Assembly (NCBI RefSeq): GCF_000039765.1
Contig: NC_004460.2
Span: 450,001 to 482,000, forward strand
Source of the DNA: Vibrio vulnificus CMCP6
Lineage (GTDB): Bacteria > Pseudomonadota > Gammaproteobacteria > Enterobacterales > Vibrionaceae
Direction: 5' to 3'
DNA length: 32,000 nt
The first letter of the stretch is position 1. Each line of letters begins with the position of its first letter. The notes beneath the pieces were generated by a model. The model searched no databases, had not been told where the DNA came from, and was given only the letters and a program-made list of their open reading frames with translations. This document shows, in pieces, positions 4,476-25,294 of this stretch. The position numbers and the translations under genes are program-made.

Positions 4476-4904
4476 CTACCTTTTTATAGCAGTTCCTTTA
4501 ATGATGATCTCCTCATCTATTTGCTCAATTGATTCTAAAGAGTCGACGACATAACTAGCTACGTCATTATCTTCATCAAAAACAATACCAAGAATATCGA
4601 ACTTATGGTAAGCATAAAGATAGTCATAGAGATATGAGCCCTCGATATCGATGAACTCCAGTAATGATGGATAATTTGTTGCTCCAGGATACGGAGGATC
4701 GAATTCACCAGTGATTTGGTCATCTTCTTTAAGATCTTCAACACCGTCATCGTACAAAGGGGTCAATTTTTCTAATAATTCGCTTTTAACTATTTTTATT
4801 TCGTAGGATAAAGTCTGTAAGCCTTGCCCTTTTCCAAAGCTTAACTGGCAAAAAGTCATCGCATTAGAATCTATGTTATTTTTATTTACTTTAAGCGAAA
4901 TCAT
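4476..4904 (-). CDS. Putative cognate immunity protein of the Rhs nucleotidyltransferase-like tip
   Basis: 142-aa, strongly acidic ORF. It starts 2 nt after the rhs stop (rhs TAA at 4907-4909, ATG at 4902-4904). It is AT-rich like the toxin tip. I recognise no family. Confidence 0.6.
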   Translation of the reverse strand: MISLKVNKNNIDSNAMTFCQLSFGKGQGLQTLSYEIKIVKSELLEKLTPLYDDGVEDLKEDDQITGEFDPPYPGATNYPSLLEFIDIEGSYLYDYLYAYHKFDILGIVFDEDNDVASYVVDSLESIEQIDEEIIIKGTAIKR

Positions 4905-4906
4905 TT

Positions 4907-7900
4907 TTAACCTCCTGGAGGTAAGATAATAATTTTTCCATCGGGAGCTATTGTTATTGACCCCGAAGGAGTATACGGCTGACCGGCTTTCAAGTCTCCC
5001 CCTGCTCTAATTCCGGCTCTTTGGAAAAACTGTTCTGGCGTTGTCATTGTTTCGATTGTTTGCGTACTTTTACCGGGAACAATCGTCAACTCTTCCATTT
5101 TTAAGAAATGGGGGTTGTCGGCTGTCGTTTTATTGATGTTTTTGATAATTCTTTGAGCTTGTTTCTCTGATAAACTACCAAAACCAACATCAATATCGCT
5201 ACCTTTACCGAAATCTCCTCTTATTCGACTTCCACCAAATACCACCGTTGAATCTCTTTTTAGCCCCTGTTCTAAAATCAGAGTAGCTTGTTCAGTTGTT
5301 AAATCAGGTACATGTTTTGATAAAAACGCAGACTGCTCTGTAATACCAGAAGTTCTTAATGTTGTTTGCTCAGGGAATGTATTAAATACCGATTTATCTG
5401 TCCAACGTTTGTCTGGAACTACCCCTTTCCCCACAGACTTCATAGCAACTCTACCGCCCCATGCGGTCATCACTATTTCTGGGGCTAACTGCACGAGTGT
5501 TGCCGCCAAGGGGGAACCTGTATGTTCTAGTGTTGCACTGCCAAGCCCTTCCATTGTATCTGCATAGGCTTCAACATATCCAGATACGTTGTTAATAATT
5601 TGATGTGCGCCCCGAGACTGCGGAACATAGCTATATTTCTCTTGAATCGATTGAATGAGCGCAGAAGATTGCTCTAAATCACCAAATGTGAGTTGCGCTA
5701 ACCCAGCTAAGCCAGCCACCGCGTCAACGGCTGTGTTGTAAGCACCTGCCGCCAGCATTTCTGTCGCACCCAACGCATAATCAATGCCGACTTGCTGAAC
5801 AGCGTCTGGCGCTATGGCATGTAACTGATAAGTCGGGCTGGCTGTTTTCACCACACTGGCGTAATTGCCTGAGCCCATCGCGTAAAACATCGGCTGTTGC
5901 GGCTGGGTATCGTTCACGCCAGCTTGTATTGCAGGAGAGCCCTCTTTGGCACATAAGCCATGCGGATCTACCCACATCACCGGATTGGGGGCATATTGAT
6001 AATGGTTTATGCCGCCTAACAGCCCAATCGGGTCTGGCTGAATAAAGCGCTCGGTTCTTGGGTCGTAGTAACGGGCAAGGTTGTAGTGTAGCCCTGTTTC
6101 CACATCGTGATATTGCCCTTGAAAACGGAGCGGGTTGCCAACGCTCTCCACCTCAATGTGCGCACGTCCGTATGTGTCGTAACGGGCTTGCCAAACAACC
6201 GAGCCTTGTTCATCCACCAGAGCCAAAGGTGTGCCAATTTGGTCACATTGGTAGAAGTAGCATTGCTCATCTTCCACTAGCATGATTGGCGTGTGACTAT
6301 TGGGCAAATAAAAATACCAACGGTACTTTCCGTTGTGATATTCACCAATTAACTGGCTCCCCTGCCAGATAAACTCGGTAGTGCCAGTTTCTGTCACTTT
6401 TCGACTACGACGCCCCAGCGCATCGTATTCAAAATGAGAAAGTTCCCCATCACTGTCGACTTGTACGAGCTGATTGAGTGCGTTGAAGCATCGATACTGC
6501 GCGCTCCCCTCGCCCTCTGCACAAATCTGATTGCCATGAGCGTCATACTGGAAGCGCCAACCGCTGTGTTCCACCAATCTGTCACCCATTAGTAGACAAT
6601 CCGCTTCACTTGGATTGCCAAAACTGTCGAATCGGTAGGTTTCTTCCTGATGCGCGGTTTTGGCGCGAGTGAGCTGACCTAGGCTGTCGTATTGGTAATG
6701 TGATGCACCCTGTACACTGTCGATAATAATGGCGAGCTGGTGAGCGGTATCATAATGGTATTTCCTGCTTCGGTTGTTCCACTGTTGTTGAGACAGTCGG
6801 CCAATACCATCAAACCGTTTCTGTTCTTGCTCTTGTCCATAGTAAACCGAGCAGATTCGTCCCATGGAATCATAGTCAAAATGCACACAAGGCGGCTTCT
6901 CACCCATTGAAATAGCCGCTAATTGGCCGTACGTGGTATACGCATAGTTCACTTGGCTGCCATCTGCTAGAAGCAACTGGCTAAGTTGCCCTGATGCGTT
7001 ATGGTGATAACCAATCCTGTGCTGCCCCTGAATTTGTTGAGATAGCTGACCACCAGAAGAGTATTGGTACTGAATAGTGCACGCTCGGTTGGTTGCCAAA
7101 CGCAGTTGCGACCCGTGACTAAACTGGTATCGGTTTTCTGACACGCCATGCGTCGCCCCCGCCTTGACCAGACAAAGATTGCCTTCAGCATCATAGGAAA
7201 AGACAACTTGACGTTCACAACTTTCTAAACGGGAGAGTCTTCCGGCTAAATCATAGTGATACTGAGTAGTGACACCATCAAAATTCTGCGTTTCAGTGAC
7301 ATAGTGGTCTGGCGACAGCGTAAACAGAAAATCACATGCATCGCTGCGAGAAATTCCAACGAGGTTCCTTTCTCCATCATAACGAAAAGCAAGCTCTCCA
7401 CCATCGGGGCGGATGATTGCATTCGGCTGTGCCAGCAAGCCCCACTCAATCGTGCTCGTTCCTGCTGGGGTAATAAGGTGTGTTACTCGGCCGCATTCGT
7501 CATACCGGTAACGCACTTCATGCTGTAAGTCATCCTCTTTACTGTAGGTAAAGGTTTTGGTCAGATGGCCATAGGTATCATGCTCAAATGCGGTCACCAT
7601 TCCGTTGGGAAATGCAATGCCATCGAGCCGATGTTCTTGGTTGTAACTGTAACGTAGCAATGTTTGATTGGCTTGATGAGCGATCATCTGATGGGCATCA
7701 TTCCACCACCATTGATGGCTTTCACCATCCGATGCTTTACGTTCGATCAGACGGCCAAACTTGTCATAACGACAATCCGTCCGTTTACCGCTTGAATCGC
7801 TCAAAGCCGTCAGTAAACCTAATATATTGTACTGGCGTTGCTCTAATGCGCCGTTTGGATAACGAATGGCCGTTTGCTGACCTAGTGCGTTGTATTGATA

Positions 7901-9340
7901 ACCTGTTGTGGCTCCACTGGAATGACGCTCTTTTGTTTTCTGACCATACGCATTGTATTGGTAGCACACCGTCTCACCGCTGGGTTGTATCGCGCGCACG
8001 AGTCGTCCGTTGTCATCGTATTCCCAGCGCCACTCACGCCCTTCTGGGCTGCGTTTTGAGCTTAGTTTGCCATGGGCATTGTGTTCAAATGACCATTGAT
8101 GGCCCAAGGTATCGCGATAACTTGACGTTTCATCTTGGTAGTGAAATTGATAATCGTAAGTGCCGTCATCGCCATAATTACGAAGACATTTGGCTTCCGG
8201 CCCTTCTGCTGACCACTCAAAATAGTGACTAAATCCCGACTGACGCTGCCTTCTTTTGAGCAAATGACTCTCTGAGTAGAAGTAGCTTTCTGTTTGACCA
8301 TGCTGATTGGTTGCCGCCGTTAAATTGTCTTGCGCGTCATATTGATAGCTCGCCAACACCTTCCCGGAATCGGGGAGCCGGACTTCAACCAGATGGCCTC
8401 TTCGATCATATTGAAGCTCTGCACAGTGCTGTTTGTTGTAGCGAATGCCTACCAAACGCTGTTTTGAGGAATAATCCAGATCAATTAAATCAATGGCTGT
8501 CGTTCTGATTTGTTTAATTAACCAAGTTTCATTCTTCCGTTCAAACTTGTACTGGGTACCATTCGCTAACGTGACCAGCAAATAACCATTTTCGTGATGG
8601 AAGCAACTTGCTCCTACGTAAGTTTGGTAACTCACCGCACCTTGGTTCACGACAGGAAACGCAATGACGTCGCCCATCTCATCGCAAAAATGCCAACCCG
8701 TAAGCTCTCCTTTTTCAGAGTGTACTTCGTGGATTTGATAGTCGAAGCAATGTCGCCAACCATGCCCTAAGCCAGTGTCTAAAAGACAAAACGAGGAACG
8801 ATAGGTGCGAGAAAAACTCAATCGATGGTGAAGTGTTAAGTCACACAGTGTTAGGATTTCTTCACCCGTCACCATAGAAACCGGATCGCCGGCTTTTTCA
8901 TGATGTTTACTGCTTTCGGCTTGCGCTTCGTCGCAAGTTTTATCATCACTGGTTTGGCTCTCTGTTTTCCCATCTGACGCGGGTTTTGACTCTTGGTCTT
9001 GAGGTGGTGGTGTTAAAATCGTTGGTTTTAATGATGCTGGCGTCACGCTTTCAAACTGAACGACATGCAGCCTTCTTGCTGCCAGTGCCGCACTCAGTGA
9101 CGCAACGTAATCTTCGAAGACTTTTTCATCGCGAAAGGGACTTTGGGGTATATTATCTCCCAACCAACCGCTTACCTCGGCGATGTCTTCTAACGAAGCA
9201 AGCTTAAATTTTTCGACAAACTGTTGAGCAACCAACTCTGTCGAGAAGTGCAGTGTCTTCCCTTCAGCGATTGGCTGGTCTGAGAAATAGTGTAACGATC
9301 CATCGTAGGCAGAGATTTTGACTATCCGTTGTCCATTCAT
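4907..9340 (-). CDS. rhs: Rhs/YD-repeat T6SS effector (1477 aa) with a polymorphic C-terminal toxin
   Basis: It contains many YD repeats (YQYDAQDNL, YQYNAYGQ, YRYDECGRV, YHYDLAGRL, FEYDALGRR and others). A plug-like GDPVSMVTGEE lies at aa 151-161. The core-end signature is RYYDPRTERFIQPDPIGLLGGINHYQYAPNPVMWVDPHGL, with DPHGL at nt 5954-5968. Its ATG directly abuts the stop of the upstream gene. Confidence 0.95.
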   Translation of the reverse strand: MNGQRIVKISAYDGSLHYFSDQPIAEGKTLHFSTELVAQQFVEKFKLASLEDIAEVSGWLGDNIPQSPFRDEKVFEDYVASLSAALAARRLHVVQFESVTPASLKPTILTPPPQDQESKPASDGKTESQTSDDKTCDEAQAESSKHHEKAGDPVSMVTGEEILTLCDLTLHHRLSFSRTYRSSFCLLDTGLGHGWRHCFDYQIHEVHSEKGELTGWHFCDEMGDVIAFPVVNQGAVSYQTYVGASCFHHENGYLLVTLANGTQYKFERKNETWLIKQIRTTAIDLIDLDYSSKQRLVGIRYNKQHCAELQYDRRGHLVEVRLPDSGKVLASYQYDAQDNLTAATNQHGQTESYFYSESHLLKRRQRQSGFSHYFEWSAEGPEAKCLRNYGDDGTYDYQFHYQDETSSYRDTLGHQWSFEHNAHGKLSSKRSPEGREWRWEYDDNGRLVRAIQPSGETVCYQYNAYGQKTKERHSSGATTGYQYNALGQQTAIRYPNGALEQRQYNILGLLTALSDSSGKRTDCRYDKFGRLIERKASDGESHQWWWNDAHQMIAHQANQTLLRYSYNQEHRLDGIAFPNGMVTAFEHDTYGHLTKTFTYSKEDDLQHEVRYRYDECGRVTHLITPAGTSTIEWGLLAQPNAIIRPDGGELAFRYDGERNLVGISRSDACDFLFTLSPDHYVTETQNFDGVTTQYHYDLAGRLSRLESCERQVVFSYDAEGNLCLVKAGATHGVSENRYQFSHGSQLRLATNRACTIQYQYSSGGQLSQQIQGQHRIGYHHNASGQLSQLLLADGSQVNYAYTTYGQLAAISMGEKPPCVHFDYDSMGRICSVYYGQEQEQKRFDGIGRLSQQQWNNRSRKYHYDTAHQLAIIIDSVQGASHYQYDSLGQLTRAKTAHQEETYRFDSFGNPSEADCLLMGDRLVEHSGWRFQYDAHGNQICAEGEGSAQYRCFNALNQLVQVDSDGELSHFEYDALGRRSRKVTETGTTEFIWQGSQLIGEYHNGKYRWYFYLPNSHTPIMLVEDEQCYFYQCDQIGTPLALVDEQGSVVWQARYDTYGRAHIEVESVGNPLRFQGQYHDVETGLHYNLARYYDPRTERFIQPDPIGLLGGINHYQYAPNPVMWVDPHGLCAKEGSPAIQAGVNDTQPQQPMFYAMGSGNYASVVKTASPTYQLHAIAPDAVQQVGIDYALGATEMLAAGAYNTAVDAVAGLAGLAQLTFGDLEQSSALIQSIQEKYSYVPQSRGAHQIINNVSGYVEAYADTMEGLGSATLEHTGSPLAATLVQLAPEIVMTAWGGRVAMKSVGKGVVPDKRWTDKSVFNTFPEQTTLRTSGITEQSAFLSKHVPDLTTEQATLILEQGLKRDSTVVFGGSRIRGDFGKGSDIDVGFGSLSEKQAQRIIKNINKTTADNPHFLKMEELTIVPGKSTQTIETMTTPEQFFQRAGIRAGGDLKAGQPYTPSGSITIAPDGKIIILPPGG
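4910..5953 (-). other. Rhs C-terminal tip (aa 1130-1477): a conserved 50-aa leader, an Ala/Gly-rich hydrophobic region, then a nucleotidyltransferase-fold-like domain
   Basis: This is the sequence after DPHGL. VVFGGSRIRGDFGKGSDIDVGF (nt 5180-5245) gives G1370-S1371-x10-D1382-x-D1384. That is the hG[GS]x9-13Dh[DE]h signature of pol-beta/MNT-type nucleotidyltransferases. Confidence 0.55.
5805..6205. repeat. Segment of the main rhs that is duplicated in the orphan region (5805-5899 with 1633-1727; 5880-6205 with 1-327)
   Basis: Direct eye alignment of the three copies. All are in the same (minus) orientation. Confidence 0.85.
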
Positions 9341-10249
9341 TTACTTATCTTCCGAACGACTGCTCCAACGATACAAAATACCCACAGCTAACCCCTGCTC
9401 TTCAGCATCAATCTGTAAGACATGAAAGGGTTTCTGTGGATCTTGCAACTGTTTTTGATAGGCATGAAGCGCCTTATATAACCCGGTTCCAGCACCGAGT
9501 TGCCCCACCAATGTGCTGGAGAAAAAATAGCCTGTGTTTTCTGTTACCCAAGGCGAAAAACGGTGTAGTTGGGAATGCCAAATAGGCATATCAGCACCGT
9601 CTAGAGGTAACATGAGTTCCGTTAATTCTCTTTGACACATTTGAGACAACGACGCCATCACTCTGGGAATGCCACTTTCATAGTGGCTGGAATAACGGTC
9701 AAACTGAACTTTCGATGGTTCTAGACCGTATGTAGAGCGTGCAATATGCACCAAGAGTAATGAGTCAGTTTTTATGTCTTCAAAAAGTTGATATTCACTG
9801 CCTACACAAAATAGAGACGAAGTATCCACAGACAGCACCCAGCACTCATGGCGCTCAAGACAATGCATGACACGCTCGAAGGCAACCAAAAAAGAGGCAT
9901 TCCCATAGGGGTAACAAAATATAGAACGCTGACCGCTAGGCGTGTCACCCAGTACCTCGTTGAGTTTCTTCACCAGCTTCAGTACCTCATCTTGTGTCGC
10001 TAGTTCAGGCAGCAAGAAGAAAATCGTCGCTTGTTTCGGGATCCTAGAAATGTCTACTGAATAATGCGCAATCAGCTCCTCCAAACGAACCAATAGAGAC
10101 GCTGATTGATGTGCGAATGTTTTATAGCTATTTCCAGAATAAAACAGATCATCGCACCATTGAGGTGGCTCAATCGTTCCTAAATTATCTTGAGTCGCCA
10201 GATTGTGAGAGCCAACATAAACAGCGTGTGGATTAAGTTCGAGCGCCAT
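9341..10249 (-). CDS. Unrecognised 302-aa accessory protein between PAAR and Rhs; possibly a degenerate ketosynthase/thiolase-like adaptor
   Basis: The ORF is wedged with zero spacing on both sides (PAAR TAG|ATG at 10249/10250; its TAA|ATG of rhs at 9340/9341). VLSVDTSSLFCVG resembles the KS active-site motif VDTACSSSL without the Cys. There is a Gly-rich LVGQLGAGTGLY near the C-terminus. I saw no DUF4123 (fRfYDPR) or DUF1795-like size or pattern. Confidence 0.35.
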   Translation of the reverse strand: MALELNPHAVYVGSHNLATQDNLGTIEPPQWCDDLFYSGNSYKTFAHQSASLLVRLEELIAHYSVDISRIPKQATIFFLLPELATQDEVLKLVKKLNEVLGDTPSGQRSIFCYPYGNASFLVAFERVMHCLERHECWVLSVDTSSLFCVGSEYQLFEDIKTDSLLLVHIARSTYGLEPSKVQFDRYSSHYESGIPRVMASLSQMCQRELTELMLPLDGADMPIWHSQLHRFSPWVTENTGYFFSSTLVGQLGAGTGLYKALHAYQKQLQDPQKPFHVLQIDAEEQGLAVGILYRWSSRSEDK

Positions 10250-10540
10250 CTAATCTCCAATCAACACGGTAGGTACGCCAACCAATATTTTGCCACCGTG
10301 AGAAGTGCTATCACCCATCCGAGCGGCTGGCTTGCCGTTAATTTTTACTGACGATGAACCGCTTGAAATACTGTCGGGAGGGCCAACACATATCAGCTTG
10401 TCTCCTTCTCTCGCGGCAGGTATACCTCCTATTTTCACATTCGGCGAGCCCGTGACGACAGGGCCTCCAACATGGGGAATCTTCCCGGTCTTTTTCGGAC
10501 AGACGTGAAAACAACCAATGACAGATGCAGGTTTACCCAT
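10250..10540 (-). CDS. PAAR-domain spike-tip protein (96 aa)
   Basis: The sequence contains GGIPAAREGD...CVGPPDSISSGSSSVKINGKPAARMGDSTSHGG, i.e. two PAAR motifs. The size is typical and it sits directly downstream of vgrG. Confidence 0.9.
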   Translation of the reverse strand: MGKPASVIGCFHVCPKKTGKIPHVGGPVVTGSPNVKIGGIPAAREGDKLICVGPPDSISSGSSSVKINGKPAARMGDSTSHGGKILVGVPTVLIGD

Positions 10541-10549
10541 GTGTTCTTC

Positions 10550-12385
10550 CTAGTTCAGTGAAATCTGGCCAGCTTTTAAGGCAATCGAGGCACCATTAAT
10601 GGCTATTTTGTTGCCTTTAATATTGATCTCCCCCGAACTCGACATCTGAATCGAAGCGCCGCCCACTTTAATTTCAATGCTTTTGCCTGCGGTCAGAGAA
10701 AGGACTTCGCCAATATCGAGTGAATAGTTTTTCCCAATCTTCCCAGAGACGTTTTGTCCAACCTCCTCCGTTAGGTTGTTGGTAATTTTCTGGGTCTTAT
10801 TGTTTTCAACTAGGACATCAGCGGAATCTTCGACGACCATTTGGAAGTTCTTTTCCGCATGAAGATAGACATGTTCCTCACCCGGTTTATCTTCAAAGCG
10901 TAACTCGTTGAAGTTACTCGCCCCTTTTTCTACAGACTGGCTACGGTAACCACTTTGGGTTTTCTTCTCTGGCAACGAAAAAGGTGGCGCTTGCGTCCCA
11001 TTGTAAAGAGACCCTGTCACCACTGGCTGATCCGGATCCCCATTGATAAATTCAACGATGACCTCTTGCCCTACTCTTGGCAGAAATGAGCTTCCCCAGC
11101 CATTCCCTGCAATTTGTTGTGCGACACGTATCCAGCACGAACTCGTCGTATCAAACTTACCTTCACGATCCCAGTGAAATTGAACTTTTATCCGCCCATA
11201 TTTGTCGACGTAGATTTCACCTTGCTTATTACCTGTCACAACCGCAGTTTGGATTCCGCGAATAACTGGCCTCACAAAGTTAACCGCCGGACGATGCACT
11301 TTCCCTGACTCAATGCAGGTAAAATAACTCCTAACACCTTGATTTGAAGGGCCACCATGACCTACTTGGTTGAAAACAGCTGCGTTGATAACAATCGATG
11401 AGAGCACGAACTCTTTGCCGATTCGGCTAGGGTCTTCATGCTTACCAAATTTGAAACTTCTGCCGACCGCAAAGGAGCGGCAACTCGACTCTCCAGAACA
11501 AACGTATGCGTTTTGCTGTAATGATTCGATCGTGTGGGTATTTCTCGTTTTGTACTGATCACCCGACTCCGCTTCACCCAGATATTCATAATGCTCGCTG
11601 CTCGGAACGGTAAATAAGGATTCGCTCCCTTTTGCCGTATTGTTAGGATGTGAAGCTGGCTTTTTCATATCATAGCCACTTTTGTGACTGCGCGTGATCA
11701 CCATCGATTGAGCTTCATGCCACGAAGAGATATGACCCAACTCTGCGGTACCTGAATTGAAATCAATTAAAAATTCAGCACCTGGCTTGTAATAGCTGGC
11801 ATCATCAAATATCTCGATCACATGTGAAGATTTAGTATGGCTGAAACAGAACGACAGCCCTTCCTCAGATAAGAGTCTTTTAACAAACTGTAGATCCGAT
11901 TCTTCGTACTGAACTTTGTAGTTATACTTGGCATAGCTTTTGGTCAGAGAAAAAGAAAAGTCGACGCCATGCTCACCAAGAATTAATGAAATGATTTCTT
12001 TTATATCTTTATTTTGAAAGATTCGGCTGTTGATTTTGTAGTCCGCAAAATTCAATTTTGGCACAACAACAAGCTCAATGTTTTTGTAGTTTTCACCATC
12101 TTCAAATTTGGTCACTCGGCTTCCTGCTAGTGTTGCCTTTGCAACAAACCCATGGAAGTATCTCGGTTCCAACATGACTTGGCTATTATTATCCATTTTG
12201 ATAATAACTGGCTGACCCACGATTTGATTCAGTTCGCCTTTTCGACCATTAAAATAAGCATAAACTCGCAATGAAAATAGCTCTGACATTTCTTCTCTAT
12301 ATTCAAAGGAATTGAGAATAATCGCATCTTTCCCATAAGGCGTGGAAATATTTATAAATTTATTATCTTGAGTCGCTTTTTTCAT
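10550..12385 (-). CDS. vgrG: VgrG (TssI) spike protein, no C-terminal effector extension
   Basis: The N-terminus is gp27-like (ISTPYGKDAIILNSFEYREEMSELFSLRVYAY). A gp5 OB-like region follows (VVTGNKQGEIYVDKYGRIKVQFHWDR...GWGSSFLPRVGQEVIVEFINGDPDQPVVTGSLYN). The C-terminal beta-helix repeats end in ALKAGQISLN. The ORF track starts at a TTG (12406); the first ATG is at 12385. Confidence 0.93.
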   Translation of the reverse strand: MKKATQDNKFINISTPYGKDAIILNSFEYREEMSELFSLRVYAYFNGRKGELNQIVGQPVIIKMDNNSQVMLEPRYFHGFVAKATLAGSRVTKFEDGENYKNIELVVVPKLNFADYKINSRIFQNKDIKEIISLILGEHGVDFSFSLTKSYAKYNYKVQYEESDLQFVKRLLSEEGLSFCFSHTKSSHVIEIFDDASYYKPGAEFLIDFNSGTAELGHISSWHEAQSMVITRSHKSGYDMKKPASHPNNTAKGSESLFTVPSSEHYEYLGEAESGDQYKTRNTHTIESLQQNAYVCSGESSCRSFAVGRSFKFGKHEDPSRIGKEFVLSSIVINAAVFNQVGHGGPSNQGVRSYFTCIESGKVHRPAVNFVRPVIRGIQTAVVTGNKQGEIYVDKYGRIKVQFHWDREGKFDTTSSCWIRVAQQIAGNGWGSSFLPRVGQEVIVEFINGDPDQPVVTGSLYNGTQAPPFSLPEKKTQSGYRSQSVEKGASNFNELRFEDKPGEEHVYLHAEKNFQMVVEDSADVLVENNKTQKITNNLTEEVGQNVSGKIGKNYSLDIGEVLSLTAGKSIEIKVGGASIQMSSSGEINIKGNKIAINGASIALKAGQISLN

Positions 12386-12439
12386 TACAAACTTCTTTAT
12401 AAACAAATAAGGAGGGCACTTTCGAACCCTCCAAATGAT

Positions 12440-12919
12440 TTACATTTGTTGACCTTTAACACCGCTGTAACCGTATACCAACGGAGCAGATGTGTTGTTT
12501 TTGTCATCAGTAGGCGTCACAGTCATCATCATCTCTGTGTAAGAGATGGTGATTGTTTCAATTGGACGGTCGTCTTGAATTGACACTGCATAGTTAGAAA
12601 TCATGGCATCCGTTAGTTGAATTTTCATGATTTCTTCGATTTTTTCACCCTGCTTAGTGATATGGAATACAGCGGGTTTACCCTTACCAATCGTGGCTTC
12701 TTTGAACAGATCTGGGGATGCTTTGTCTTGAAGTTTGGTAATGGTCATATCGTAAAGACGAGTAGAGCTTGCTTCACGATCCATTGCGGTACCAGTATAA
12801 GAAGAAATTTCACGACCTACACTCCAATCAACTGAAAGAAGAGTAATCATATCCTTGTACTGTTCTGCGGTAGCTTCACCTTTAATATCAGCATATTTCA
12901 GGTAGGTATTTGACTGCAT
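12440..12919 (-). CDS. hcp: Hcp (TssD) tube protein
   Basis: 159 aa, MQSNTYLKYADIKGEAT...DREASSTRLYDMTITKLQDKASPDLFKEA. The size and N-terminal I-K-G-E pattern are Hcp-like. It lies between clpV and vgrG. An AGGAGA Shine-Dalgarno sits 5 nt upstream. Confidence 0.85.
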   Translation of the reverse strand: MQSNTYLKYADIKGEATAEQYKDMITLLSVDWSVGREISSYTGTAMDREASSTRLYDMTITKLQDKASPDLFKEATIGKGKPAVFHITKQGEKIEEIMKIQLTDAMISNYAVSIQDDRPIETITISYTEMMMTVTPTDDKNNTSAPLVYGYSGVKGQQM

Positions 12920-13134
12920 GCTAGTCTCCTATAGCATTTGATTAATAAAACTCAAAAAAGAGTCAGATTTTCTTACTAGAATAAGAACTTTAGAATTAAT
13001 AATAAATGTATTAAATAGGTAAAATTAAATACACACTTTTATAACTGAGATGCTCGCTATTTTGTAGTGAATAACGAACATCTGTTAAACATGTTAGATG
13101 CAATTCTCAATTAACTAAAAATCATAAAAAAGTA
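12920..13134 (-). promoter_or_regulatory. AT-rich clpV-hcp intergenic region; likely internal promoter or regulatory region for hcp-vgrG-PAAR-rhs
   Basis: This is the only gap longer than 50 nt in the 22-kb operon. It is very AT-rich and holds an imperfect palindrome CATCTGTTAAACATGTTAGATG at 13079-13100. I could not define -35/-10 boxes unambiguously. Confidence 0.3.
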
Positions 13135-15699
13135 TTAGACGATTGAGATAGACAAGTCATCAACTTCACCTTCTATCTCAATTTTATTTATTCTTATATC
13201 ATTAAGAATGGCATTTAATACGGATTCAGATATTTTAGGCAGCACCTTATTTTCAATCACATTTTGAAGAGCACGCGCGCCACTGCCCGTTTCATTGCAG
13301 CTGTCAACAATACTATTAATTAAGCGATCGTTGATCACCGCTTCTGCTTTATAGTTTGTTTTTATCCTCTTCTGAATTTTGGAGAGTTTCAGCGCGGTGA
13401 TTTTCTCCAATACATCACGGTGCAAAGGGATATAAGGAATGACATTCACTCGACCTAAAAAAGCGGGCTTGAAATCCTGTAATAAATCATCTCGTAGCGC
13501 TTCTTTGAGTGCCTCCGGATCCGGAGCAAGCTCTGGATCTTGGAATAACTCCATTGTTGTTTCCGTCCCAGAGTTGGAAGTCATGATAATGATGGTGTTT
13601 TTGAAATCGATGTCTCGCCCTTCACCGTCTTTAATCATGCCCTTATCAAACACTTGATAGAAAATATCCTGTACACCCGGATGGGCTTTCTCCATTTCAT
13701 CAAGCAATATGACGCTGTAAGGTTTTCTTCTTACGGCTTCCGTTAGCACACCACCTTCGCCATACCCAACGTAGCCCGGAGGAGAGCCCAGCAGTAACGA
13801 GACTTTATGCTCTTCTTTAAATTCAGACATGTTAATGACGGTGATGTTTTCTTCACTACCATACACTTGCTCAGCAATGGCCAACGCAGATTCCGTTTTA
13901 CCGACACCACTTGGGCCTACCAAGAAAAAGATACCGTTAGGTTTTGATTCTTCATTGAGTTGTGCTCTCGCGGTTTTGATCACTTCCGCCATTTTACTCA
14001 ACGCGTGATCTTGGCCGACCACTCGCTCTTGCAGATGTTGCTGTAAGTCTAGAATCGCTTTTATTTCATCGCTTTTTAGTTTGCCTAATGGTATGCCTGT
14101 CCAGCCTGCAATAATTTCAGCAATTAGGGCTTCGTTAACATGCGAAAACACCAAAGGCATCGGGTTAGACGATAACTGCTGTTCAATGGATTGCAGCTGA
14201 TTGGCTTTCTCTGCAGATGGTTCTGCCAAAATGGAATCACGGAGCGCTTTGGCCTGCTTGACTGCGCCTTCTTCATCTCGCCACGTTGTCTCTAGTTGGT
14301 GAATTTCATTTTGAAGGAGCGACAACTTGCTCTCAAGTTCGTCAAGAGCTGTTTGATGAGAATGACCAAATGCAAGTTCATTGGTGAGCTGAAGCTGTTG
14401 AGCTTCTATCATTTGGCGTTTTTTGTATTTCTGATCAAGCAGCCCTGGTATCGAGTTTTGACTCAAAGCAACACGAGAGCACGCGGTATCTAAAACCGAT
14501 ACCGCCTTGTCTGGCAACTGACGGCCGCTAATGTAGCGAGAAGAAAGAAAGACGGCAGCCTTGAGTGCCTCGGTAGTAATGTGGACGCCATGATGTTTTT
14601 CCATGACAGGAACGAGGCCACGCAGCATCTCTATCGCCAATTCAGGTGAAGGTTCCTCTATTTTAACCACTTGAAAACGACGGGTCAGAGCTGCGTCTTT
14701 CTCTACATATTTTTTGTATTCAGCCCATGTGGTTGCGGCGATCGTGCGTAGCTCCCCCCTGGCTAAGGCGGGCTTAAGTATGTTCGCAGCATCACCTTGA
14801 CCAGCCTGCGCCCCTCCACCAATCAATCCATGCGCTTCATCGATAAACAGTACGATAGGCACCGCTGACTCTTTGACTTCTTTGACCACGTTCTTCAATC
14901 GATTTTCAAACTCGCCCTTCATACCAGCACCGGCCTGGAGTAGCGCCAAATCAAGCGATTTAATTCTCACTGCTTTAAGCGCGGGAGGCACATCCCCTTC
15001 AGCGATTTTTAGCGCAAGTCCTTCGACAACGGCGGTTTTACCTACCCCCGCCTCACCCGTCAGGATAGGGTTATTTTGACGGCGTCGCAGAAGAATATCC
15101 GTCATCAGACGAATTTCATCATCTCTGCCAATCACCGGATCAATTTGCCCCAACTCCGCTTGCTCTGTCAGATCTATCGTAAATTGATCCAACGCTTGTG
15201 TAGAAGCTCTGTGGTTGGGAATTTGATTAGCCATTTCAACATGAGTCTGTGCGTATTCGATTAGCGCACTAGGCTGAATTTTGCTTAGCTCTTTGCTCAC
15301 AGTCGAAGATAGAGCAAACAACGTGTCGTCAGAGAGGAAGGCATGAAGCAAATGAACAGCAGCAATTTTTTCTGCTTCAAACGCAATCGTCGCTGTCATC
15401 CATGCATTCTGTAGTATGGTGACCGTATGGGATGACAACCCCGGTACAGTTTGACAGCCCGTTTTGTACTTCTCTAATTGCAAAGTGAGATCCGTCTGCA
15501 ATTGGTTCAGATCAACCTTAAACGAGCGATACAGTTCGATTTCTTCAGGCCCAGCACTTTGCACTAGCGTAAGCAGCCAATGTGTCATTTCAATGCTGTG
15601 GTGAGTTCTTGAGCTCGCCAAAGCAGCGGCTTGCTCTAATGCTCTTTTCGCTTCAGGGGTTAACTTGTCAACTAACGCGGATAGTGAAAGAGATGCCAT
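13135..15699 (-). CDS. clpV: ClpV (TssH) AAA+ sheath-recycling ATPase
   Basis: 854 aa with two Walker A motifs (GEAGVGKTA, GPSGVGKTE), a Clp N-domain and a coiled-coil middle region. Confidence 0.95.
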   Translation of the reverse strand: MASLSLSALVDKLTPEAKRALEQAAALASSRTHHSIEMTHWLLTLVQSAGPEEIELYRSFKVDLNQLQTDLTLQLEKYKTGCQTVPGLSSHTVTILQNAWMTATIAFEAEKIAAVHLLHAFLSDDTLFALSSTVSKELSKIQPSALIEYAQTHVEMANQIPNHRASTQALDQFTIDLTEQAELGQIDPVIGRDDEIRLMTDILLRRRQNNPILTGEAGVGKTAVVEGLALKIAEGDVPPALKAVRIKSLDLALLQAGAGMKGEFENRLKNVVKEVKESAVPIVLFIDEAHGLIGGGAQAGQGDAANILKPALARGELRTIAATTWAEYKKYVEKDAALTRRFQVVKIEEPSPELAIEMLRGLVPVMEKHHGVHITTEALKAAVFLSSRYISGRQLPDKAVSVLDTACSRVALSQNSIPGLLDQKYKKRQMIEAQQLQLTNELAFGHSHQTALDELESKLSLLQNEIHQLETTWRDEEGAVKQAKALRDSILAEPSAEKANQLQSIEQQLSSNPMPLVFSHVNEALIAEIIAGWTGIPLGKLKSDEIKAILDLQQHLQERVVGQDHALSKMAEVIKTARAQLNEESKPNGIFFLVGPSGVGKTESALAIAEQVYGSEENITVINMSEFKEEHKVSLLLGSPPGYVGYGEGGVLTEAVRRKPYSVILLDEMEKAHPGVQDIFYQVFDKGMIKDGEGRDIDFKNTIIIMTSNSGTETTMELFQDPELAPDPEALKEALRDDLLQDFKPAFLGRVNVIPYIPLHRDVLEKITALKLSKIQKRIKTNYKAEAVINDRLINSIVDSCNETGSGARALQNVIENKVLPKISESVLNAILNDIRINKIEIEGEVDDLSISIV

Positions 15700-15712
15700 T
15701 CTTAAATCCTTT

Positions 15713-16681
15713 TTAAATTGTTATCGTTATTTGTTTATTTGCGTTCGATAGGCTCGGCATTAAGATACTGCCTTTGCCTAATCGACCTCTTCCTTTTGCT
15801 AAGTTAGCGCTAGGAAGTTGTGCTCTACGAGCGGTTAAAGTCCAACGAATACGCTTACTCGTCCCCAACATGCGGCACATCAAATGCTTGGTCTCACTCA
15901 ATCGTTCGGTGTGGAGCAACGCCGCCAATGAATCAGGGTCCTTTGCAATCAACTCGACATCAAATCCAGAACTCATGTTCCAGCTTTGCTTACCAAGCAT
16001 GGCCCCCAATCCCAGTTGTGCGTGCTGCCCTTCCGGCCTATCACGGCTGCAAAGGCGAGTTTGCTCTGCTTCACTAATGTCAAACCAGCGACCTTTGAAC
16101 TCATGCAAACACACATCACATCCGGTATAAAACTCAATGATGCTTTTGATGTATGCACGGCTTCGACGCTTTGACGTAAACATACCGCCAAAGAAAATCG
16201 CTTCATCGTCAAGGTTGCCAGTCAGAGAGGAGAGGACGGTCTGAATGGGCGACGCCGCTGATTTCTTATCTTGCGTTCGCAGTTGTGCGGGCAATTGGTA
16301 TGACTGCCAACACCGGTAGTAGAGAGAGAGCAGTCTGTGGTTAAAAATGTCGAAGAAATCCTTCATAGCCGTGTCATTTTCACGCGCCCTTTGCATAACC
16401 AGCTCGCTGTAATGACTCGGCAGTACCCCCTGCTCACCGGTTAAACCGATGATGTTGGTTTGTAAGGTTAATTTATTGCTCTGGCAATTTGGCACGACAT
16501 TTATCAGCTCTCGCGCCTCATAACCTAAACGTTGCGAGACTGTGAGCTGGATTTTTTCATTCTTTGGTAACGCATCAGAACCCAGATGACTATCTGCCTG
16601 CAGTAGATGAGTCTCGATCAAATGTATCGCGGTAAAGAGAGGTAGCGATTCAATCTCAGCGAGAAAATCTTCACTTTTCAT
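15713..16681 (-). CDS. tssG: TssG baseplate protein
   Basis: About 322 aa, following tssF with an ATGA overlap (16678-16681). It starts MKSEDFLAEIESLPLFTAIHLIE, and position and size are typical. The ORF-track start at 16714 overlaps tssF and is rejected. Confidence 0.85.
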   Translation of the reverse strand: MKSEDFLAEIESLPLFTAIHLIETHLLQADSHLGSDALPKNEKIQLTVSQRLGYEARELINVVPNCQSNKLTLQTNIIGLTGEQGVLPSHYSELVMQRARENDTAMKDFFDIFNHRLLSLYYRCWQSYQLPAQLRTQDKKSAASPIQTVLSSLTGNLDDEAIFFGGMFTSKRRSRAYIKSIIEFYTGCDVCLHEFKGRWFDISEAEQTRLCSRDRPEGQHAQLGLGAMLGKQSWNMSSGFDVELIAKDPDSLAALLHTERLSETKHLMCRMLGTSKRIRWTLTARRAQLPSANLAKGRGRLGKGSILMPSLSNANKQITITI

Positions 16682-18504
16682 AACAGCTCTCTCTCTCCCG
16701 CCATCGATGGCCATGTATGGAATAACGCCCCAGTGGAGGAGAGCTTAATCAGTAGCCGTGTGAACGTGTTGACTTCAGCGAATTGTGAGAAGTAACTCGA
16801 TAGCACGTTTCCTAACAAAAAGATCTGTTCTCGAGACAAAATCTGATCGGAAATCGTTAAGGTGATTTCGCTGCCGTGGCAAAAACCGACCCGACCATTT
16901 TGCACCACACGCCCAGTCGTCATCTTTGTCGACATACCTTTAATTGAATCGATCAATGCTTTGGTTTCTGGCGAACCTCTAAAAGCCAGCAAGTTTAAGA
17001 TTTGCTTAAGCGTTTCCGCTCCTTGTTGATTGCAGAAATGATCCAATGTAATCAGTTTTGCAAACTGCCATCGAGTCGTCTCATCCATTTCGGCGCGAAT
17101 GGTTTCGGTTGGCGTGGTCAAGCAACGAACGCGACTAAAATTGTCCTGACTCTCGGGCAATGTGACCAAAGGAAGCCCTCCACCAAACGGAATTTTGGCG
17201 GGGAGATTACGATTGCAACACCACGTGTCGATCGACATCAACCAACTTTCTTTCGCATCGGGGGCAAACAATTGGTGCTTACGATCAACCAGTGATACGA
17301 ACACTTCCCGCCCGGGTTCATCAAAACCACCAGCCCAGTTTCTATCTTCTCTACGCATTAACCAGAACAGATCATATTGCGTTTGATAGTGGGTATGCGT
17401 CCCCGCATAGTAAGGGGGCAAGTTTTCGAAGACCTTATTCCAGTTTCTTAAAGTGACGTCATCAATACTGACCACTTCACTCGACTCTGGATCGCAGTGC
17501 TCTGGATGCAGTTGATATTCATATTCAGAGGCTTGCACCCTCATTGGCTTCATTTTCGCTTGATAAAGATTGACAACCGGAACCGCTCCTAAGGCGATAT
17601 TTTCGACAGAGACTTGTTTCTCCAACCAGTCGTTGCCCTCTGCAAAATAGAGCCAGATTTCCACTTTCCCTTGTTCGCTAGCGAGGACTGAGAGATCTAA
17701 GTCTGTCAGCTCAAAAAAGAGAAATTTTTCGGGGAAGTGCAAGTACTCGATCAATAGACGCGTGCCAGAAAAGCTACGCTTACTGTATGGAACCGCCTGT
17801 ATTTGGTCGTCGAAGCCCAATGAACGTATGTGACGTGGCGTGAGCTCTTTTTTGCATCGACCTCCTTGTACCAAGCTTAGGCCAATGCAGGATTGAAAAA
17901 TTTGTTGATAAAGCTGCAGAGCCGCTTGTCGTTGACCACTCAGATAGAATCGCAGGCATGAATCATCCAGAGTGGATAGGCTCAACTCAGCATTGTTCGA
18001 TTGAATTTCGAGTTTGAGCACTGACTTGGCAGCGAGCTCCATACGACATTCTGTGCCGCTAAAAGGGGCATTTTCAAACTGGGCGTCAGTGACATCAAAA
18101 GGATGAACTTGTGTGGCACAGCATGTTTTGAAGTCACACTCTTGGTATCCCGGTGCCGTGATCGTGACGCGTTCTCCTTTGGCCACCGTAAACGCCGACG
18201 ACGAAGAGGTCGTTCCTTTCAACTGCACAATCGACATTGACGGAATGGGGGCATGAAAATCGGGAAATAGCTGCCCAATTAACGCTTCGGTTAGCTGTGG
18301 AAACGCGTTATCCAAGCTTTGTCGTATACGAGCAGAGAGAAAAGCACACCCTTCGAGAAGCCTTGAGACATGAGGGTCTTCAACGACTTCATCATTCATT
18401 CGCAATCGAGCTGCAATCTTAGGGTATTGTTCCCCAAATTCATGGCCTTTATGACGCAAATACGCGAGTTCTCGATTGTAGTATTTCAGAAAATCTTCAC
18501 TCAT
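16678..18504 (-). CDS. tssF: TssF baseplate protein
   Basis: 608 aa. The N-terminus YYNRELAYLRHKGHEFGEQYPKIAARL is the canonical TssF start. It has an ATGA overlap with tssE. Confidence 0.92.
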   Translation of the reverse strand: MSEDFLKYYNRELAYLRHKGHEFGEQYPKIAARLRMNDEVVEDPHVSRLLEGCAFLSARIRQSLDNAFPQLTEALIGQLFPDFHAPIPSMSIVQLKGTTSSSSAFTVAKGERVTITAPGYQECDFKTCCATQVHPFDVTDAQFENAPFSGTECRMELAAKSVLKLEIQSNNAELSLSTLDDSCLRFYLSGQRQAALQLYQQIFQSCIGLSLVQGGRCKKELTPRHIRSLGFDDQIQAVPYSKRSFSGTRLLIEYLHFPEKFLFFELTDLDLSVLASEQGKVEIWLYFAEGNDWLEKQVSVENIALGAVPVVNLYQAKMKPMRVQASEYEYQLHPEHCDPESSEVVSIDDVTLRNWNKVFENLPPYYAGTHTHYQTQYDLFWLMRREDRNWAGGFDEPGREVFVSLVDRKHQLFAPDAKESWLMSIDTWCCNRNLPAKIPFGGGLPLVTLPESQDNFSRVRCLTTPTETIRAEMDETTRWQFAKLITLDHFCNQQGAETLKQILNLLAFRGSPETKALIDSIKGMSTKMTTGRVVQNGRVGFCHGSEITLTISDQILSREQIFLLGNVLSSYFSQFAEVNTFTRLLIKLSSTGALFHTWPSMAGERELL

Positions 18505-18974
18505 TTCGCTCTACTCAGTTTTATCCCTAGACTGACGGGCTCAACTTCCGAATCCATAACCAACTCCTGCTCGTTATTATCAATCATGCAGGTCGCCTTG
18601 ATTCTGAGTTTTAAAATTCGATCTAACGGATTTTTGTCTTCTGCAATGGCGACCGACACATAGTTGAGCCTAGGTTCATACTGTTGAATGGTTTCTTTCA
18701 CTCGTTGGCACAGAACCTGTTGCCCATCCGCGCTGCTAAATGGCATTGATGAGAAATCTGGCAAACCATATCGCAAGATAGACGTCTGTATTTCACGTAG
18801 CTCATCTGACAACGTCATCCAGTTGATACGGCTGTTCAGTAATGATTCAAGATCTCGTCTGAGTGAATCCATCAACGCATGTCGCGTTAATGGAAAGTCT
18901 CTATCAATGCTGCTCAGAGGATCACTGTCCGTCAATTTATCCATGAGGGATGGGACTAGACCTGTTTCACTCAT
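18501..18974 (-). CDS. tssE: TssE (gp25-like) baseplate protein
   Basis: 157 aa, SLMDKLTDSDP...RDLESLLNSR...YGLPDFS, a gp25/lysozyme-like family pattern. It has ATGA overlaps on both sides. Confidence 0.9.
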   Translation of the reverse strand: MSETGLVPSLMDKLTDSDPLSSIDRDFPLTRHALMDSLRRDLESLLNSRINWMTLSDELREIQTSILRYGLPDFSSMPFSSADGQQVLCQRVKETIQQYEPRLNYVSVAIAEDKNPLDRILKLRIKATCMIDNNEQELVMDSEVEPVSLGIKLSRAK

Positions 18975-19774
18975 TCAATCGTGGTTTCCACAGCCAAGGC
19001 GACTCGTTCTAATTGGCTCAAAGCCAGCGCATTGTCACCAACCAGCCACATCTTTTGCCCTTGACCGATGCAGTGATCCGTACCTAGAACATTTTTCCAG
19101 TCCGTTTCTCTGCCCAGTTTTTGGTTGCCACTTTCGGAATCTACGTACGTCATTGGGAAATGAGCTTCACCTTCGCCAAGTCCTTGAATATCGAACTCGC
19201 ATGGTCGCCATAGTGTTTCCAACATGTTGGTGGCGGGTTTGAGTTCCAAGTAATGGAGATGGTCCATCGGAACTAAGAAATAGTTACCTGCGGAAGAAAA
19301 GAGCTCAATGAAGCCCCCCAATCGATCATCGAGATCTCTCACATCATCATAGCGCACACCATTAATTTCAAATTGGAGTGCTTGACGGGATTGCTCTGCA
19401 CGCTCACACACCGAGATCAGTTCCTCATGGTTGTTCTCTTTTTGCGCCAAAATGAACTGAACAATCGTTTCACCCAGTTTTTCGGTACCCTCTATGAATT
19501 GCGCTGATGCGGCGCCTGCAAAAAAGTCCTTTCTTGCTTGAGCAGCTTTAACCAGATGACGAATTTGGCTTGCTCCGGGCAAATACTCAGGGAACAACTT
19601 AATGGACTGCATTAACTGTTCATCCGCGCGCTCAAACTCGCCCATGATGCATAGCAGTTCAATAAACTTGCTGCGAATAGTGGCGTTTTTGGGCGCCAAT
19701 TTGATTTCTTTAATCAGCGCTTGTTTGGCGAGTTCGAGCTCGCTTCGACTGAGGTGGTCTTGCCAATCTGACAT
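18971..19774 (-). CDS. tagJ: TagJ (ImpE/SciE-family) T6SS accessory protein
   Basis: The N-terminus is TPR-like (AKQALIKEIKLAPKNATIRSKFIELLCIMGEFERADEQL), as in ImpE. It sits between the sheath genes and tssE, as in H1-T6SS. The ATG at 19774 has an AAGGAA Shine-Dalgarno; the track start at 19792 is a TTG. Confidence 0.8.
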   Translation of the reverse strand: MSDWQDHLSRSELELAKQALIKEIKLAPKNATIRSKFIELLCIMGEFERADEQLMQSIKLFPEYLPGASQIRHLVKAAQARKDFFAGAASAQFIEGTEKLGETIVQFILAQKENNHEELISVCERAEQSRQALQFEINGVRYDDVRDLDDRLGGFIELFSSAGNYFLVPMDHLHYLELKPATNMLETLWRPCEFDIQGLGEGEAHFPMTYVDSESGNQKLGRETDWKNVLGTDHCIGQGQKMWLVGDNALALSQLERVALAVETTIE

Positions 19775-19784
19775 GTTTATTTCC

Positions 19785-21278: not shown

Positions 21279-21322
21279 ATCAATATGAGGGACTGGCTTG
21301 TTATGCCAGCCCCTAGTCTCTC

Positions 21323-22816
21323 TTATCCGCCAGACTGAGGGATTTTCGCTACCAAACGGAGAGACGTTGTGAGCTCTTCCATTTGCAGCCAAGGCTTAAG
21401 CCACGCGACCGCGTTGTAAGCACCCGGTGCGCCAGGAACTTCTCTGACCTGCACTCGCGCATCCGCCAACGGGTATTTCGCACGGATCTCTTGACCACCG
21501 CCTTCCGACGCGTTGACGTAGCCAAGGATCCATCGATTTAGCCATGACTCAACGTCTTCTGCTTCCATGAAGCTACCAATCTTATCTCGCGCCATGACCT
21601 TGAGATAATGCGCAAAACGAGAAGTCGCCATCATGTAAGGCAAGCGCGCAGAAATCGCAGCATTCGCAGTGGCATCTGGCGAATCGTATTTGGCTGGTTT
21701 TTGGCAGGTTTGCGCACCAAAGAATACAGCGTAGTTGGTATTCTTATAGTGACATAAAGGCAGGAAGCCCAGTTTACCTAACTCGGATTCACGACGGTCA
21801 GTAATGCCAATTTCGGTCGGGCATTTCATATCTGGATCGCCATCGTCACTCATAAAGAAGTGCGTTGGCAGATTGTCGACACGACCACCACCCTCAGCAC
21901 CACGAATTGCCGTGCAGAATCCATACTTGGCAAATGCGTCAGTGAGCTTCGCTCCCAGTACATACGACGAGTTCATCCAGCAGTAGTCGTTGTGCTGCGC
22001 ATTCACGGCAATTCCGGTGGTTTCGTCTACGGAAAACTCTTCAAAACCAAACTCTTCGACTGGCGATGTCGCTTGTCCATAAGGAAGTCGAGCAAGGACT
22101 TTCGGCATCGTCAAGCTGACAAAGCGTGAGTCTTGGCTTTCACGGAATGCGCGCCACTGAGTGTACTCGAGCGACTCAAATACTTTCTCTAAATCTCTAG
22201 GCTTCGACAATTCCGTCCATTCGTCAAAACCAAACAACGCAGGTGAGGCGGCAGAAAGGAATGGAGAAAAACCAGCTGCCGCAACATTCGACATAAGACG
22301 CAGCGTTTCAATATCTTCTGGATGATTCGTAAATTCATAGTCACCAATGATCGCACCATATGGCTCACCACCAGCACTACCGAATTCTGATTCGTAGACT
22401 TTCTTAAAGACCTGGCTTTGATCGAACTCCACTGCTTTACTCAAATCTTTGTGCAGCTCTTTCTTGGTCATACTCACCATACGAATCTTTAACGTGGAGC
22501 TCGTTTCCGAATTCATCACCAGATAATTCAACCCACGCCACGTTCCTTCCAACTTTTGCAACTCAGGGTGATGCATCACCGCAGACAGCTGTTCGGAAAT
22601 CTTTTTGTCCAAAGCGGTAATGGCTTCACGAAACGTCACGGTTAGGTTTTTATTCCACGTTACCGTACCTTTTAAAGCTTCTTCTGTTAATGTTTTGATT
22701 AACTCTTCTGCTCTCGACGCTTCCGTTTGTTTGGTCGCGCCAATCGCTTGTTCTAAGAAGGAAAAACTCTGGCCTTCAACGGTGGGGTCTAATTGTGTTT
22801 CAAGCTGTGTTGTCAT
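21323..22816 (-). CDS. tssC: TssC (VipB) large sheath subunit
   Basis: 497 aa with canonical TssC motifs (see the paralog comparison). It directly follows tssB. Confidence 0.95.
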
Positions 22817-22827
22817 TGTGCAGTCCC

Positions 22828-23340: not shown

Positions 23341-23356
23341 ATCGTTCTCCCTTTAA

Positions 23357-25284: not shown

Positions 25285-25294
25285 TCGATCACCG

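Follow-up and report, generated by a model that had tools for sequence, protein, structure and literature searches.

The locus considered here raises the question of whether the last gene of a type VI secretion system (T6SS) operon in Vibrio vulnificus CMCP6 encodes a nucleotidyltransferase (NTase) toxin carried by an Rhs protein, and whether the small gene behind it provides immunity. It lies in a stretch of 32,000 nucleotides (nt) of contig NC_004460.2 (assembly GCF_000039765.1, positions 450,001 to 482,000), which is called the window in the following and in which all coordinates are counted unless another record is named. The rhs gene (4907..9340, minus strand) encodes a protein of 1477 amino acids (aa) and is followed by a 142-aa open reading frame (ORF; 4476..4904, minus strand). 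An initial annotation, made from the sequence itself, had proposed the two genes as a toxin/immunity pair with a minimal nucleotidyltransferase (MNT) signature in the toxin. The analysis described here indicates that rhs probably encodes a T6SS-delivered Rhs toxin with an MNT-like NTase payload of ~165 aa, which is neutralised by the acidic 142-aa protein. Judged at the level of sequence, where every feature tested agreed, the C-terminal module of the Rhs protein qualifies as a polymorphic toxin domain with cognate immunity.

Modular structure of the Rhs tip

Rhs polymorphic toxins are recognised by RHS/YD repeats, an RHS core, a DPxGL boundary and a variable tip, and all of these were found in the 1477-aa protein. 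Pfam matches were obtained for DUF6531 (PF20148, aa 151-227), the RHS repeats (PF05593) and the RHS core (PF03527, aa 1028-1063). The core/tip demarcation motif DPHGL was read from the translation at aa 1125-1129 (5954..5968, minus strand), and the polymorphic tip behind it varies among V. vulnificus alleles. By analogy with established Rhs biology, from which the cleavage of the tip is inferred, DPHGL is the presumed autoproteolytic release site. The 348 aa beyond the motif agree with the tip length given in the initial annotation, in which the modularity of the tip and the boundary of the toxin domain had been missed.

The tip was divided into modules by BLASTP against 32 relatives from 5.8 billion proteins, resulting in a tripartite layout. 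Module 1 (aa 1130-1187; 5780..5953, minus strand) is a linker that also occurs, with 76-94% identity, in numerous tips of V. vulnificus, both Rhs-borne and orphan, in combination with Ntox15, Endonuclease_NS_2 or another domain; it probably serves as a recombination handle. Module 2 (aa ~1188-1310; 5411..5779, minus strand) is an Ala/Gly-rich middle domain without a Pfam match, which occurs in Vibrio loci only and is reused there upstream of other toxin domains (TNT and another one without a Pfam match). Module 3 (aa ~1311-1477; 4910..5410, minus strand), the predicted MNT-like NTase toxin domain, was delimited by alignments, Pfam, AlphaFold, Foldseek and a census of the family, and recurs C-terminally in quite different proteins. 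An exact breakpoint is provided by a 1448-aa Rhs protein of V. vulnificus (locus L050), which is identical through ...KGVVPD; beyond this point, both its C-terminal domain and the 142-aa gene downstream of it are unrelated to those of the window. The NTase domain had been described as the last ~112 aa of the tip. The position of the motif in this segment was correct, but the domain itself starts ~55 aa earlier (aa ~1311-1313, nt ~5404-5410), before VVFGG.

Nucleotidyltransferase motif and profile matches

The assignment of the tip to the pol-beta/MNT/KNTase NTases was originally based on the motif GS-x10-DxD. This motif is present as G1370-S1371-x10-D1382-x-D1384, counted from VVFGGSRIRGDFGKGSDIDVGFGS, which begins at V1366 (nt 5245); the span of the quoted 34-aa peptide, given as nt 5180-5245, had to be corrected to nt 5144-5245. 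As sufficient evidence on its own, the bare motif was rejected. Used as a regular expression, it was found by chance in 1% of shuffled tips and in 4% of shuffled Rhs proteins, and within the window it has one further match, which lies inside VipB (nt ~22384, minus strand). Since the latter is a chance match inside a sheath protein, the bare motif is not diagnostic.

More can be learned from the conservation of the predicted catalytic residues, which are encoded on the minus strand at nt 5228-5233 (G1370-S1371), 5195-5197 (D1382), 5189-5191 (D1384) and 5093-5095 (E1416) and correspond to G72, S73, D84, D86 and E118 in domain numbering. Among 108 family sequences, G1370, S1371 and D1382 are conserved in 100% each, D1384 in 98% and E1416 in 85%. 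The elements hG[GS] and [DE]h[DE]h and a third carboxylate on the next strand are thus represented by F-G1370-S1371, D1382-I-D1384-V and E1416. About equally conserved in the same alignment are the family-specific positions F1438, F1439, R1441, G1443, R1445 and S1459-G1460.

In the Pfam comparison, NTP_transf_2 (PF01909) was matched with 22.8 bits by the tip and with 24.5 bits by the domain, at a gathering cut-off of 21, and individually by 12 of 28 diverse family members (E≤0.01). The sole further Pfam family found was the related Polbeta NTase model PF18765, matched by one of the 28, and the AbiEii/MenT model PF08843 (DUF1814) was matched neither by the window protein (E≤1) nor by any of the 28 members (E≤0.01). 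Within NCBIfam, 17 of the 28 weakly matched the MntA adenylyltransferase model, and no other model was matched consistently. Profile searches of PDB sequences returned MNT-type proteins only (2rff, HI0073/1no5 and 8xeo), which were aligned through GSRxRG....SDxD; a single-sequence PDB search with the tip found nothing. Taken together, the invariance of the motif within the family and the profile matches are strong sequence evidence for a predicted NTase, with which the evidence from the fold agrees only weakly.

Predicted structure of the toxin domain

The AlphaFold2 model of the domain, calculated from the family alignment A2, reached a predicted local distance difference test score (pLDDT) of 83.2 and a predicted template modelling score (pTM) of 0.80. 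Its elements follow the order alpha-beta-alpha-beta-alpha-beta, in which the GS pair comes after strand 1, DxD is located on strand 2 and the glutamate on strand 3. The top matches of a Foldseek search against the PDB were nucleotidyltransferases, comprising HI0073, 1ylq, 2rff, AadA/AAD(9), GLD-2, Tailor and CCA-adding enzymes. All of them are weak matches (best E = 0.06), and only a core of ~78 residues is well aligned.

Distribution of the predicted toxin domain

To describe the family, 1.84 billion representative proteins were searched with the domain profile. In total, 164 clusters were found at E≤1e-3, 149 of them at E≤1e-10. Because most matches are far below the threshold, the family hardly seems to grade into ordinary MNT proteins. 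The domain ends at most 15 residues from the protein C-terminus in 90 of 96 full-length matches and thus almost always occupies the extreme C-terminus, in unrelated trafficking architectures. Among the carriers are Rhs proteins (one with an N-terminal VgrG-type OB domain), a CdiA-type protein with haemagglutinin repeats and PT-VENN, and Rhs proteins with PT-HINT; further carriers are eCIS_core (DUF4157), LysM, PG_binding and annexin proteins. In the Rhs carrier P0011, a PT-TG-like stretch was recognised by eye, with no PT-TG model scored. The annexin type is represented by a 1015-aa carrier with two annexin repeats (PF00191, E = 9e-30) in a Thiodiazotropha metagenome-assembled genome (L012, 3478-6522). 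As the N-terminal module of a bacterial polymorphic toxin, such repeats are unusual.

A locus scan with alignment A2, restricted to one genome per species, gave 36 loci. These are found in Vibrio, Zooshikella, Thiodiazotropha, Pseudomonas, Dyella, Moraxella, Neisseria and Desulfobacterales, as well as in Chryseobacterium, Fluviicola, Brevibacillus, Acetivibrio, Sorangium, Planctomycetota, Verrucomicrobiota, Acidobacteriota, Actinomycetota and others. At the level of phyla, the family covers Proteobacteria, Bacteroidota, Firmicutes, Actinobacteria, Myxococcota, Planctomycetota, Acidobacteriota and others, and it uses at least four delivery routes. One record of the Joint Genome Institute carries the automatic label 'predicted nucleotidyltransferase'. 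The PADLOC defence models gave insignificant matches only, and a plasmid search with the cassette gave no match.

The probable immunity gene

The 142-aa ORF begins 2 nt past the rhs stop codon and encodes 28 Asp and Glu versus 11 Lys and Arg residues, which results in an isoelectric point (pI) of 4.1. The initial annotation was therefore right in calling it very acidic and in its placement directly behind rhs. Its AGGAGG Shine-Dalgarno sequence is located 6 nt upstream of the ATG within the last rhs codons, and by this sequence feature the gene is predicted to be translationally coupled to rhs. Between the two genes, neither a terminator-like site nor a promoter-like site on the coding strand was found. 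The AGGAGG (window 4907-4925, minus strand) is encoded by the last toxin codons (PPGG), and in alignment A2, which covers the closer relatives, the C-terminal PPG does not vary; these codons may be under a dual constraint, as part of the protein and as Shine-Dalgarno sequence.

The role as cognate immunity gene, which had been proposed from position and charge, is strongly backed by synteny and by hidden Markov model (HMM) searches. The ORF immediately behind the toxin domain is an immunity homologue in 31 of the 36 loci by the first HMM and in 33 by the second-iteration HMM, across many phyla, and the gaps between the two genes are typically -4 to +16 nt. Right after the toxins of Thiodiazotropha, of a LysM-type metagenomic locus and of locus L006, homologues with 30-57% identity were found; all homologues are unnamed hypothetical proteins. 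No match to the immunity profile was obtained for genes behind tips that have just the linker and the middle domain in common with the main tip. For this reason the immunity gene is considered to track the NTase domain and not the middle domain, as is expected of a small conserved downstream gene that co-varies with a toxin domain.

The immunity proteins are acidic throughout the family (pI 4.05-5.7), and of their positions only D61, within EDD...G, and P79, within YP.L, are nearly invariant. None of 31 family members had a Pfam match, the family did not match any PDB sequence, and a single-sequence search returned noise only. The model of the immunity protein has a pLDDT of 85.6 and gave no meaningful match to PDB folds (best E = 0.12, template modelling score 0.37). 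The statement that the 142-aa protein belongs to no known family is thereby confirmed for Pfam, PDB sequences and PDB folds. Because catalytic-looking invariant residues are absent from the family, neutralisation by binding is suggested.

T6SS locus and gene order

Linkage to VgrG, PAAR and a T6SS core cluster, by which T6SS cargo effectors are recognised, was found for rhs. The gene is located at the end of a long minus-strand operon, and a complete T6SS lies upstream at 12.4-31 kb on the same strand. By Pfam scan, the core cluster comprises Hcp, ClpV, TssG, TssF, TssE, VipB, VipA, TssM and TssL (12440..30802, minus strand). It is followed by the VgrG spike protein (10550..12406, minus strand; Phage_GPD, Phage_base_V and Gp5_trimer_C) and the PAAR spike-tip protein (10250..10540, minus strand; PF05488, E = 1.8e-27). 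Between PAAR and rhs there is a 302-aa ORF without a Pfam family match (9341..10249, minus strand), whose stop codon abuts the rhs start codon and whose C-terminus is also present upstream of Rhs in L050, L051 and L053. It may be a new Rhs adaptor or chaperone and is regarded as a candidate. The G + C content of the cassette of toxin domain and immunity gene is 0.37-0.41, compared to ~0.49 in the Rhs core.

Comparison with known systems

The only named relatives that resulted from the profile and fold searches are MntA-type adenylyltransferases. MntA poly-AMPylates a tyrosine of HepT using the motif GSX10DXD (PMC7641770), and the toxin domain shares with it an identical GS-x10-DxD within the stretch GSRxRG....SDxD and, as far as the model predicts, the minimal core of the pol-beta fold. 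In contrast to HepT-MntA, where the NTase is the antitoxin, the NTase here would be the secreted toxin, so that the roles are reversed. The domain also differs from MntA by ~55 extra N-terminal and ~55 extra C-terminal residues with invariant motifs of its own (FFxRxGxR and SGS) and by its fusion to Rhs, CdiA, extracellular contractile injection system and other trafficking modules. Furthermore, the neighbour of MntA is a HEPN protein (HepT), whereas the neighbour found here is the 142-aa acidic protein without a HEPN or other Pfam match.

MenT/AbiEii proteins (DUF1814) resemble the present pair in being growth-arresting toxins of the NTase fold with a dedicated neutralising partner and the same class of catalytic motif. 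Unlike the secreted polymorphic domains, they are intracellular toxins of toxin-antitoxin or abortive-infection systems, and their neutralising partners are unrelated. MenT enzymes extend tRNA and Tas1 synthesises (p)ppApp. Tas1 of P. aeruginosa is likewise a T6SS-delivered antibacterial effector of the wider NTase superfamily, but it is a pyrophosphokinase of the RelA_SpoT family and not a nucleoside monophosphate (NMP) transferase, and its carrier and immunity protein differ. The RelA/SpoT-like family of Tas1 and toxSAS (PF04607) gave no profile match. Characterised Rhs/T6SS tips, such as the ADP-ribosyltransferases RhsP2, Tre23 and TreThr, nucleases and NADases, have the same architecture and genetics, with the Rhs cage, the DPxGL boundary, a swappable cassette of domain and immunity gene, and orphan cassettes in arrays; they differ in the catalytic fold of the payload.

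That an MNT-like domain had not been recognised among Rhs/T6SS payloads, as the initial annotation stated, agrees with the literature searched. The only NTases mentioned in a 2012 catalogue of polymorphic toxins and in a 2025 review of T6SS effectors are RelA/SpoT-like. In the searchable literature, a scope outside which subscription-only papers lie, no MNT-like toxin of the polymorphic or T6SS kind was found to be described. In Pfam and NCBIfam there is no dedicated family for either the toxin domain or the immunity protein. Toxin and immunity protein are therefore two uncharacterised protein families within the familiar framework of polymorphic toxins. It is slightly more likely than not that the family represents the first MNT-type NTase employed as an interbacterial weapon, spread over many phyla by T6SS Rhs, CDI, eCIS and further delivery systems, which would kill through nucleotidylation of a universal target, by a chemistry unlike that of MenT and Tas1, and would be blocked by an immunity protein of a previously unseen fold.

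Proposed mechanism and alternative explanations

From the gene context, the Rhs cage would ride on the spike formed by the VgrG and PAAR proteins of the genes just upstream and be launched by the neighbouring T6SS, and the tip would be released at DPHGL, as in established Rhs biology. In the cytoplasm of the recipient, the domain is predicted to bind an NTP-Mg complex via G1370-S1371 and the carboxylates D1382, D1384 and E1416. An NMP, most probably adenosine monophosphate (AMP), would then be transferred to a hydroxyl group on a cytoplasmic target that is universally conserved, by which growth would be stopped. We infer the NTP-binding and NMP-transfer steps from the fold, the invariant residues and the phyletic spread. 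The producer and its kin would be protected by stoichiometric binding of the immunity protein to the domain, and the loop region with the nearly invariant acidic DD...G and YP.L may plug the active site.

Several points weigh against an MNT-type NTase of this kind. The match of the domain to the MntA/MNT type VII antitoxin model (NF047752) is far below the family cut-off (15.7 bits versus 60; best E among the 28 members 8.8e-4), and the third carboxylate E1416 is kept in only 85% of the members. Moreover, about half of the domain is family-specific and without a known counterpart, namely the N-terminal helices and the C-terminal part with FFxRxGxR and SGS, so the chemistry could differ from simple NMP transfer.

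As for the target, AMPylation of a protein at Ser, Thr or Tyr, as carried out by MntA, is marginally favoured, because MntA-type adenylyltransferases are the only named relatives and the domain is also small; by this analogy it is a possible rather than an established activity. It is somewhat less likely that the same toxin/immunity pair acts on RNA, in which case nucleotides would be added to the 3' ends of tRNA or other RNAs and aminoacylation and translation would be blocked, similar to MenT/AbiEii. The catalytic motif, hG[GS]x9-13Dh[DE]h, is of the same kind, the arginines R1441 and R1445 are invariant in the family, and a universal target of this type would fit the spread over many phyla. 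However, no family member matches the AbiEii/MenT Pfam model. MenT proteins are bilobed and about twice the size of the domain, and the model of the domain has no obvious RNA-binding lobe. The charge of the proteins bears on the RNA target in both directions: the domain in the window is basic (pI 9.2; family median 8.2) and the immunity family acidic, as is common in inhibitors of nucleic acid enzymes, but within the family the toxin pI varies between 4.7 and 10.9 and basic charge is therefore not a family trait.

Less probable still is that the pair works through small-molecule or nucleotide chemistry, either by runaway consumption of ATP or other NTPs, by production of a toxic or signalling nucleotide as for Tas1 and CD-NTases, or by nucleotidylation of a metabolite. 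Enzymes such as ANT(2'') and Lnu(A), which are small NTases with a length of 160-180 aa, do act on small molecules, AadA and AAD(9) are among the fold matches, and Tas1 is the only T6SS effector of the NTase superfamily in the 2025 review. On the other hand, neither RelA_SpoT nor any SMODS-type family was matched in Pfam, and the nearest named profile is that of the protein adenylyltransferase MntA. Finally, the NTase-like domain might not be the toxic part or might be a dead binding module, with killing by the middle domain (aa 1188-1310), for example through membrane insertion, or the tip might not be a toxin at all. The middle domain is hydrophobic and helical-looking. It is restricted to Vibrio, however, and was rejected as the toxin because it is common to tips with different C-terminal domains and different, unrelated immunity genes. 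The immunity family, in contrast, stands beside the NTase domain in 33 of the 36 loci regardless of the upstream architecture, and the complete or near invariance of the catalytic residues speaks against a dead enzyme. A toxin other than an active NTase domain is thus highly improbable, and an NTase payload paired with the 142-aa immunity protein is retained as the preferred explanation.

Neighbouring cassettes and strain variation

The region downstream of the immunity gene contains an array of orphan cassettes. An orphan Rhs tip (window 819-1718, minus strand) starts with the linker MFYAMGSGNYAS.VKTASPTYQLHAIAPD, as in the main tip; nt 1633-1726 of the orphan tip and nt 5805-5898 of the main tip linker are 96.8% identical. 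The linker is followed by a PT-TG-like stretch, recognised by eye only, and by an Endonuclease_NS_2 toxin domain (PF13930, E = 1e-36), and the tip is succeeded by a YezG-like immunity gene (window 488-829, minus strand). A second, ungapped copy of the 3' end of the Rhs core including the DPHGL region (5900-6205) is located at window 21-326 with 94.4% identity. Presumably, this copy opens a further orphan cassette that extends beyond the left end of the window, and the ORF 137-328 reads the core remnant in another frame.

Inside the orphan array, an insertion sequence element with a DDE_Tnp_1-type transposase (window 2756-3674, minus strand) was found, which is split into ORFs of 75 and 203 aa. 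According to the gene calls, a transposase is present at the corresponding place in the sibling genome L048 and is missing in L047 and L049. The 159-aa ORF at window 2116-2595 (minus strand) has no family match. A homologue with 52% identity is located in Dyella acidisoli (L014, 283-756), ~5 kb upstream of the NTase toxin locus of that strain, and the ORF is probably another orphan immunity gene of a family that is not recognised.

Directly downstream of the immunity gene there are ORFs of 51 aa (4315-4470, minus strand) and 169 aa (3809-4318, minus strand), which overlap by 4 nt. Both lack a family match and accompany the cassette in every Vibrio locus examined and in no other genus. As they are restricted to Vibrio loci and do not match the immunity profile, they were rejected as part of the toxin/immunity module. 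They may be the remnant of the 3' end of a displaced toxin together with its immunity gene.

The exact immunity protein was found in 109 index blocks of public assemblies and is located downstream of the same 1477-aa Rhs protein in those examined. One public locus is 100% identical to the window over 3.4 kb. Both a 100%-identical fragment and the 95% relative are annotated as V. vulnificus. In L011 (V. floridensis) and L050-L053 (V. vulnificus), the NTase domain is a 5'-truncated orphan that starts at profile position 28 and is fused to sequence derived from the Rhs core in another frame, and the adjacent immunity gene (P0033, 95% identical) is intact. These loci look like cases of immunity retention without toxin, as expected if kin with the full toxin attack.

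Significance of the proposed toxin/immunity pair

To our knowledge, known enzymatic T6SS/Rhs payloads are few and comprise nucleases, deaminases, ADP-ribosyltransferases, NADases, a (p)ppApp synthetase, peptidases and lipases. An MNT-like NTase payload would bring a new chemistry to interbacterial antagonism. Because the family spans many phyla and at least four delivery routes, its target is probably a universally conserved cytoplasmic component, and identification of this target could expose a new vulnerable step. The pair is furthermore open to studies of structure and substrate and to use as a counter-selection or labelling tool.

With regard to evolution, a minimal type of enzyme that serves as antitoxin in HepT-MntA would act as toxin here, in a mirror image of that system. 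For V. vulnificus itself, the allele is common, and other strains keep the immunity gene beside a truncated orphan toxin, which suggests ongoing competition at the strain level in this pathogen.

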